The translations under genes and the position numbers were made by a program. From assembly GCA_964484935.1 (NCBI GenBank), contig CAZAFW010000001.1:135654-199653 (forward strand): a stretch of 64,000 bases of DNA. The letters are read 5' to 3'. This DNA comes from an uncultured Peptostreptococcaceae bacterium (GTDB lineage Bacteria; Bacillota; Clostridia; Peptostreptococcales; BM714). This document shows positions 53,023 through 53,824 of this stretch, piece by piece. The notes below the pieces were generated by a model, which was not told the origin of the DNA, made no database searches, and saw nothing but the letters and a program-made list of their open reading frames with translations. Each line of letters starts with the position of its first letter. Within the stretch, counting starts at the first letter, position 1.

Positions 53023-53104
53023 GCCGTCTTTCACCTGCCTTCTTTTTCTTCTATAGTTTTCCAACATATTAAAAGGATACAGTCAATCGCCGTATCCCAA
53101 ATAA

Positions 53105-53354: not shown

Positions 53355-53413
53355 AAGCGTCAAGTGTCCCCTTTTTTTTTTAACATTATAACATAAATTT
53401 TTCAAAAAAACTA

Positions 53414-53442
53414 TTTACAAAGAACACACGTTCTATTATAAT
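53414..53442 (+). promoter_or_regulatory. near-consensus sigma-A promoter of the YneA-like gene
   Basis: TTTACA (53414..53419), 17-nt spacer, TATAAT (53437..53442). The spacer is filled by LexA box 1. Confidence 0.75.
53421..53434. promoter_or_regulatory. LexA (Cheo/SOS) box 1
   Basis: AGAACACACGTTCT has a perfect GAAC-N4-GTTC core and is 12/14 to CGAACRNRYGTTYC. It lies between -35 and -10. Confidence 0.75.
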
Positions 53443-53450
53443 GGATTTAT

Positions 53451-53464
53451 AGAACACTTGTTCG
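53451..53464. promoter_or_regulatory. LexA (Cheo/SOS) box 2
   Basis: AGAACACTTGTTCG has a perfect GAAC-N4-GTTC core. It lies between the -10 and the SD (GAGGTGA), i.e. over the expected transcription start or early leader. Confidence 0.7.
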
Positions 53465-53474
53465 AGGTGATATT

Positions 53475-53780
53475 ATGAAAAAGCGCTACAAAATAGCAAA
53501 TCGCAGAAAATTCATAACAAGCACAGCTCTTTTACTGTTCATTTCATTTTGCATCTTTTCAGTGCCTTTGAGGCTTGTTCAGGCAAATGGGATGCAGGAA
53601 AAACAGTACAGAGAAATCGTAGTCAAGCCGGGCGAGACAATATGGAAAATAGCCGAATCGCAAAATCAGGACCGAGACGTCAGGGAAACTGTCTTTGAAA
53701 TATTTGAAACCAATCATTTGTCCAGCCACACAATAAGACCCGGACAAACGATACTGGTTCCTGTAAAACTTACCGAATAG
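53475..53780 (+). CDS. YneA-like SOS-regulated protein: N-terminal TM anchor plus LysM domain (candidate cell-division inhibitor)
   Basis: 101 aa. Basic N-terminus, TM segment (ITSTALLLFISFCIFSV), and LysM (YREIVVKPGETIWKIAESQ…TNHLSSHTIRPGQTILVPV). ATG behind GAGGTGA. Two LexA boxes sit in the promoter. Confidence 0.75.
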   Translation: MKKRYKIANRRKFITSTALLLFISFCIFSVPLRLVQANGMQEKQYREIVVKPGETIWKIAESQNQDRDVRETVFEIFETNHLSSHTIRPGQTILVPVKLTE

Positions 53781-53824
53781 AAAAACAGGCAAATTCAGTT
53801 TTTAGCGAATCTGCCTGTTTTTAT
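53781..53824. terminator. bidirectional rho-independent terminator
   Basis: AAAAACAGGCAAATTC-N10-GAATCTGCCTGTTTTTATTT lies between convergent stops and is flanked by an A-run and a T-run. Confidence 0.8.

Follow-up and report, generated by a model that had tools for sequence, protein, structure and literature searches.

A probable yneA orthologue under two predicted LexA boxes, adjoining the ruvC unit rather than lexA, in an uncultured lineage of Clostridia

SosA of Staphylococcus aureus and ChiZ (Rv2719c) of Mycobacterium tuberculosis are small SOS-induced membrane proteins that inhibit cell division. In B. subtilis, yneA is part of the yneA-yneB-ynzC operon, the lexA-yneA region of Bacillus carries three LexA boxes, and residues K5, E6, F10, V11 and F14 of the YneA TM domain are critical. 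YneA is cleared by CtpA/DdcP, and CtpA-type proteolysis is said to end the YneA checkpoint in B. subtilis. Accounts of B. subtilis YneA were reportedly given by Kawai in 2003 and by Mo and Burkholder in 2010. The TM domain of YneA binds TM7 of FtsW, and peptidoglycan binding by the LysM domain is required as well (PMC13396833). The substitutions D46A, T47A and I81A abolish activity, D46A abolishing both peptidoglycan binding and toxicity (PMC13396833). Outside Bacillus, a LexA target has been described in Clostridium (Acetivibrio) thermocellum, the YneA-like Clo1313_1450, with a conserved LexA site and in divergent orientation to lexA (PMC8457756).

The gene considered here lies in a 64-kb window (the whole stretch of DNA analyzed, 64,000 nucleotides) of a MAG of an uncultured Peptostreptococcaceae bacterium, comprising 135 contigs and 2.12 Mb and 91% complete. 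The open reading frame (53475-53780, plus strand) codes for 101 amino acids and starts with ATG at 53475, 4 nt after the Shine-Dalgarno sequence GAGGTGA (53464-53470). Upstream, the -35 hexamer TTTACA (53414-53419) and the -10 hexamer TATAAT (53437-53442), both on the plus strand, were read from the sequence and recovered by a consensus scan. They are separated by a 17-nt spacer (53420-53436), and the combination scores 11 out of 12 as a sigma-A promoter. Predicted LexA (Cheo-type) box 1, AGAACACACGTTCT (53421-53434), fills this spacer. Predicted box 2, AGAACACTTGTTCG (53451-53464), begins 8 nt past the -10 hexamer, 30 bp from box 1 centre to centre, and lies over the predicted transcription start and the 5' UTR. 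Both boxes have perfect GAAC-N4-GTTC cores and are the only such sites in the window. All these elements were found where the original prediction, made from the letters of the sequence, had placed them. Immediately downstream of the gene, a hairpin (53781-53822) is shared as a terminator with a convergent ORF of 121 amino acids. Its folding energy is -17.7 kcal/mol (z = -4.6), and none of 200 shuffled sequences folds as well. On the plus strand the hairpin is preceded by an A-run and followed by a U-run, so that the terminator can work bidirectionally, and its position directly after the stop codon makes the gene monocistronic. In this respect the gene, with a terminator of its own, differs from the B. 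subtilis operon. In other respects the likeness to B. subtilis YneA is close, as both proteins are about 100 residues long, have a single TM helix with the N-terminus inside and an extracytoplasmic LysM domain, and are preceded by multiple LexA boxes in the promoter. Clo1313_1450 resembles the gene in the same way, being a clostridial YneA-like TM and LysM protein with a LexA site.

The assignment of the product to the YneA family, likewise part of the original prediction, is borne out by sequence and structure searches. The protein has a basic N-terminus and one TM helix, and its LysM domain is recognized by Pfam at residues 49-96 (1.1e-10). An AlphaFold2 model, computed from a 6-row alignment (pLDDT 77.7), consists of a long helix (residues 10-39) followed by the beta-alpha-alpha-beta LysM fold (residues 44-97). 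Every match in PDB sequence and Foldseek searches was a LysM domain. Six Lys or Arg residues fall within residues 2-12, which fits an N-in topology with the LysM domain outside. The sole strong NCBIfam match is NF010723, 'cell division suppressor protein YneA'. Residues 16-98 align to positions 5-87 of the 87-position profile and score 62.4 bits (61.9 bits in the genome-level search) against a curated equivalog cut-off of 60. The pass is narrow, and the margin of only 2.4 bits counts against the YneA reading, but the model is specific: among 14 control genomes it exceeded the cut-off only in B. subtilis.

Two features set the protein apart from B. subtilis YneA. One is a longer basic N-terminus bearing a motif conserved across the order. 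Residues 1-13 (53475-53513), like the corresponding region of the orthologues, contain a basic cytoplasmic motif of the approximate form R-I-x-N-K/R-x-R-F ahead of the TM helix, in which I7 and F13 are found in at least 90% of the aligned orthologues. This motif lies N-terminal to residue 16, where the match to the Bacillus-based profile starts. The other feature is a Glu in place of the Asp of the peptidoglycan-binding motif GDTxW. The motif reads G53-E54-T55-I-W, with the Thr kept. E54 is unique among 22 aligned orthologues, the other 21 having Asp, and an assembly error is unlikely because 13 contigs encode the very same protein. E54 apparently corresponds, within the motif, to D46 of B. 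subtilis YneA. Glu would keep the carboxylate and may or may not substitute for Asp.

The promoter and its boxes are conserved together. Each of the seven species of the genus has perfect cores in both boxes, and their proteins are 67-89% identical. In the alignment of the intergenic regions of the genus, both hexamers (the -35 being TTTACA in 7/7 species) and all four half-sites are invariant. By contrast, the N4 centre differs among species in either box, as does the segment separating the -10 from box 2. Such invariant half-sites with variable centres are, as judged from the alignment, a classical footprint. At a larger evolutionary distance, the same layout (-35, 2 nt or in one locus 3 nt, a 12-bp core, 3 nt, -10, second box) is kept in 23/23 orthologous loci, which represent 11 of the 12 sampled families of the order. 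The -35 is TTTACA or a TTGAC-type variant throughout. Box 1 keeps its position in 22 of the loci and differs by 1 nt in the last, where the spacer is 18 nt. The centres of the first and second boxes are always 28-38 bp apart, the second being downstream, and in many loci a third box is present about 30 bp upstream. Conservation of the boxes upstream of orthologues had been named beforehand as a test that could overturn the proposal, and it is found in every one of the 23 loci.

A genome-wide box scan, also suggested in the original prediction, returned 22 perfect GAAC-N4-GTTC cores in the 2.12-Mb assembly. About 29 are expected from base composition, and thus the motif is not enriched genome-wide. 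The cores include those at three predicted SOS promoters. The genome has a single canonical lexA (C1:40072-40683, minus strand), which, in agreement with its reported absence from the window, is located elsewhere on contig C1, and its own -35 is overlain by the box CGAACCTATGTTTG. Perfect boxes are also present just upstream of recA (CGAACATTTGTTCT) and of the gene for a Y-family polymerase, dinB (CGAACGTTTGTTCG), the identity of both genes having been confirmed. A one-mismatch scan of intergenic DNA revealed no convincing SOS genes beyond lexA, and neither uvrA nor uvrB was located. A one-mismatch site 5' of a small DUF1858-like gene on contig C57, as well as other sites of this kind, looked like chance.

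Several further boxes or LexA-like sequences were observed outside the window. At C36:11874-11924 a gene for a 197-residue protein, in which we detected no Pfam family, is directly preceded by a TATAAT with the perfect box CGAACATATGTTCT adjoining it. The geometry of box and -10 is that of yneA box 1, and an ORF for an 86-residue coiled-coil protein is divergent. This could be an uncharacterized SOS gene. The perfect boxes AGAACGTGTGTTCG (C29:1161-1174) and AGAACACGTGTTCG (C95:4077-4090) each precede a copy of an IS605 OrfB/TnpB-type gene, the distance to the listed ORF being about 40 bp for C29 and about 110 bp for C95. These boxes may represent the element's end or LexA control of the element. 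The only LexA-like match in the genome other than LexA itself is on contig C108 (C108:3-1916, minus strand). It is a frame of at least 638 residues, interrupted by the contig ends, which combines a UvrD-type helicase, HSDR_N_2 and a C-terminal LexA-like S24 peptidase domain. Its relatives have frames of about 820 residues and end in S24 likewise. As an alternative repressor this protein was rejected, since the LexA DNA-binding domain is not seen in this UvrD-type helicase fusion. It may be a self-cleaving, damage-responsive helicase.

Two other explanations of the locus have to be weighed. It might be argued that the palindromes are not LexA operators, having arisen by chance or belonging to some other regulator, and that the gene is constitutive or otherwise controlled. 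The missing genome-wide enrichment speaks for this explanation, which we nevertheless consider very improbable. At the observed density, only about 0.01 pairs of cores less than 40 bp apart are expected per genome, so that the pair formed by box 1 and box 2 is not due to chance, a point settled by its conservation among orthologues. The footprint pattern across the seven species and the identical architecture in all 23 loci argue in the same direction. Moreover, boxes of like motif at lexA, recA and dinB, together with the lack of a second LexA-like repressor (the helicase fusion being the only other LexA-like match), indicate that the yneA boxes are best read as LexA operators.

The alternative that accepts LexA repression concerns the product, which might be an SOS-induced LysM membrane protein with a different envelope role, for example in remodelling of the wall, in anchoring or, as with SpoIIIM, a protein of the same topology, in a sporulation-type function. 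The combination of a TM helix and LysM is a generic architecture, found also in B. subtilis SpoIIIM, and neither the TM nor the LysM domain of SpoIIIM can replace that of YneA (PMC13396833). The NF010723 score just above the cut-off, E54 in place of an otherwise invariant Asp and the order-wide basic motif outside the profile match would also agree with a role other than inhibition of division. Set against this are the YneA model as the sole strong NCBIfam match and the presence of the orthologue in the canonical lexA-divergent position in 31 genomes of the order. In addition, when two operators overlie a very strong promoter, the product is typically toxic and in need of tight repression. On balance we regard a non-inhibitory role as improbable, though less so than operators that do not belong to LexA.

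The gene is thus most probably a yneA orthologue of an uncultured Clostridia lineage, encoding a monocistronic, LexA-repressed SOS division inhibitor, for which we infer both LexA binding and induction by DNA damage. Apart from the narrow profile score, E54 and the lack of linkage to lexA count against this assignment. In undamaged cells, LexA dimers on both operators would shut the near-consensus sigma-A promoter. At box 1 LexA would occlude the spacer between the hexamers, and at box 2 it would cover about +2 to +15 of the 5' UTR of about 25 nt. DNA damage would activate RecA, and RecA-stimulated self-cleavage of LexA would then allow the promoter to fire. The 101-residue product would enter the membrane with its N-terminus inside. 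On the model of B. subtilis YneA, its TM helix may dock on the septal peptidoglycan polymerase FtsW, while the LysM domain may bind peptidoglycan and block septal wall synthesis until repair is finished. A CtpA-type protease would probably clear YneA afterwards. Candidate partners are present in the genome, namely one CtpA-type protease and two SEDS proteins (C1:70976-72028 and C1:151650-152699) as possible counterparts of FtsW. By description, SosA and ChiZ are similar LexA-controlled small membrane proteins that block a late step of division. ChiZ has a LysM domain as well, whereas SosA has none. SulA of E. coli is alike in logic, as a LexA-repressed division brake removed by proteolysis, but its fold is unrelated, and it is a cytoplasmic protein that binds FtsZ.

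The genomic position is where the gene departs from the Bacillus arrangement. It lies at C1:189128, about 148 kb from lexA, whereas B. subtilis yneA is divergent from lexA. The same holds for the comparison with Clo1313_1450, because here the gene is apart from lexA and back to back with the promoter of a micro-peptide/ruvCAB unit. The divergent neighbour is a pair of genes for peptides of 46 and 30 amino acids, followed by ruvC, in line with the micro-peptide/ruvCAB unit of the original prediction. Throughout the genus the genes are arranged as ruvC <- 30-aa peptide <- (46-aa peptide) | yneA -> <- 121-aa ORF <- yebC. To place this arrangement in the context of the order, 121 genomes were searched with the YneA and LexA models and the coordinates of the matches were compared. 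Among the 59 genomes with a strong YneA-type match, yneA is divergent from lexA in 31, belonging to families f2, f3, f9, f11 and f12. It is on another contig or far from lexA in 27 (7/7 in f1, 6/6 in f8, 13/13 in f10, and one f2 genome at a distance of 7.5 kb), and in the remaining genome the comparison is broken at contig ends. Therefore, the gene was rightly described as lying apart from lexA, but the implied rarity does not hold: separation from lexA is a lineage trait of three families. We also considered the ruvC neighbourhood as a common trait of the lexA-unlinked families and rejected it. There is no ruvC within 1.5 kb of yneA in f8 and f10, and hence adjacency to ruvC is specific to the genus.

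The number of boxes also differs, with two at the gene here and three in the lexA-yneA region of Bacillus. In this genome lexA has one box and yneA two, which is what the split of an ancestral three-box intergenic region would leave. Directly 5' of lexA, on the same strand, is a tyrosine-recombinase-like gene for 370 amino acids (C1:40770-41882, minus strand), which occupies the place that yneA has in other families. A protein with a similar N-terminal sequence adjoins yneA in one orthologous locus (L024). The recombinase-like gene may have a connection with the rearrangement by which yneA and lexA became separated.

The divergent promoter, given here as context and not as part of the SOS gene, has an extended -10, TGTTATAAT (53384-53392, minus strand, reverse complement). 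All seven species of the genus have it in the form TGnTATAAT, always equally far from box 1. Box 1 covers about -44 to -57 relative to the predicted minus-strand start. Classical LexA repression of ruvCAB is therefore not supported by position, and the caution expressed earlier on this point was fair. A literature search for LexA control of ruvAB in Firmicutes gave nothing usable, and we make no claim in this regard. It is conceivable, if unlikely, that in this genus the module was moved back to back with the ruvCAB promoter and that LexA at box 1 might also lower the activity of the divergent promoter in part, perhaps by interfering with contacts of the alpha-CTD or the UP element. If so, Holliday-junction processing and two membrane micro-peptides would come under partial SOS control via a common operator. 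A terminator-like hairpin was also observed on the minus strand between the gene for the 30-aa peptide and ruvC (53074-53098). Expression of the micro-peptides may be to some extent independent of ruvCAB transcription.

For SOS biology, these results are a confirmation rather than a discovery, since LexA-controlled YneA-like genes in Clostridia have already been published (PMC8457756). What the comparisons support is that an uncultured lineage has a member of the known YneA family, whose linkage to lexA has been lost as is typical of that lineage, the only twist being that the gene adjoins the ruvC unit rather than lexA. In relatives the gene carries no more specific GenBank label than LysM domain protein, and it now gets a confident functional name. 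The yneA promoter and its two operators travel as one fixed module, with or without lexA adjacent.
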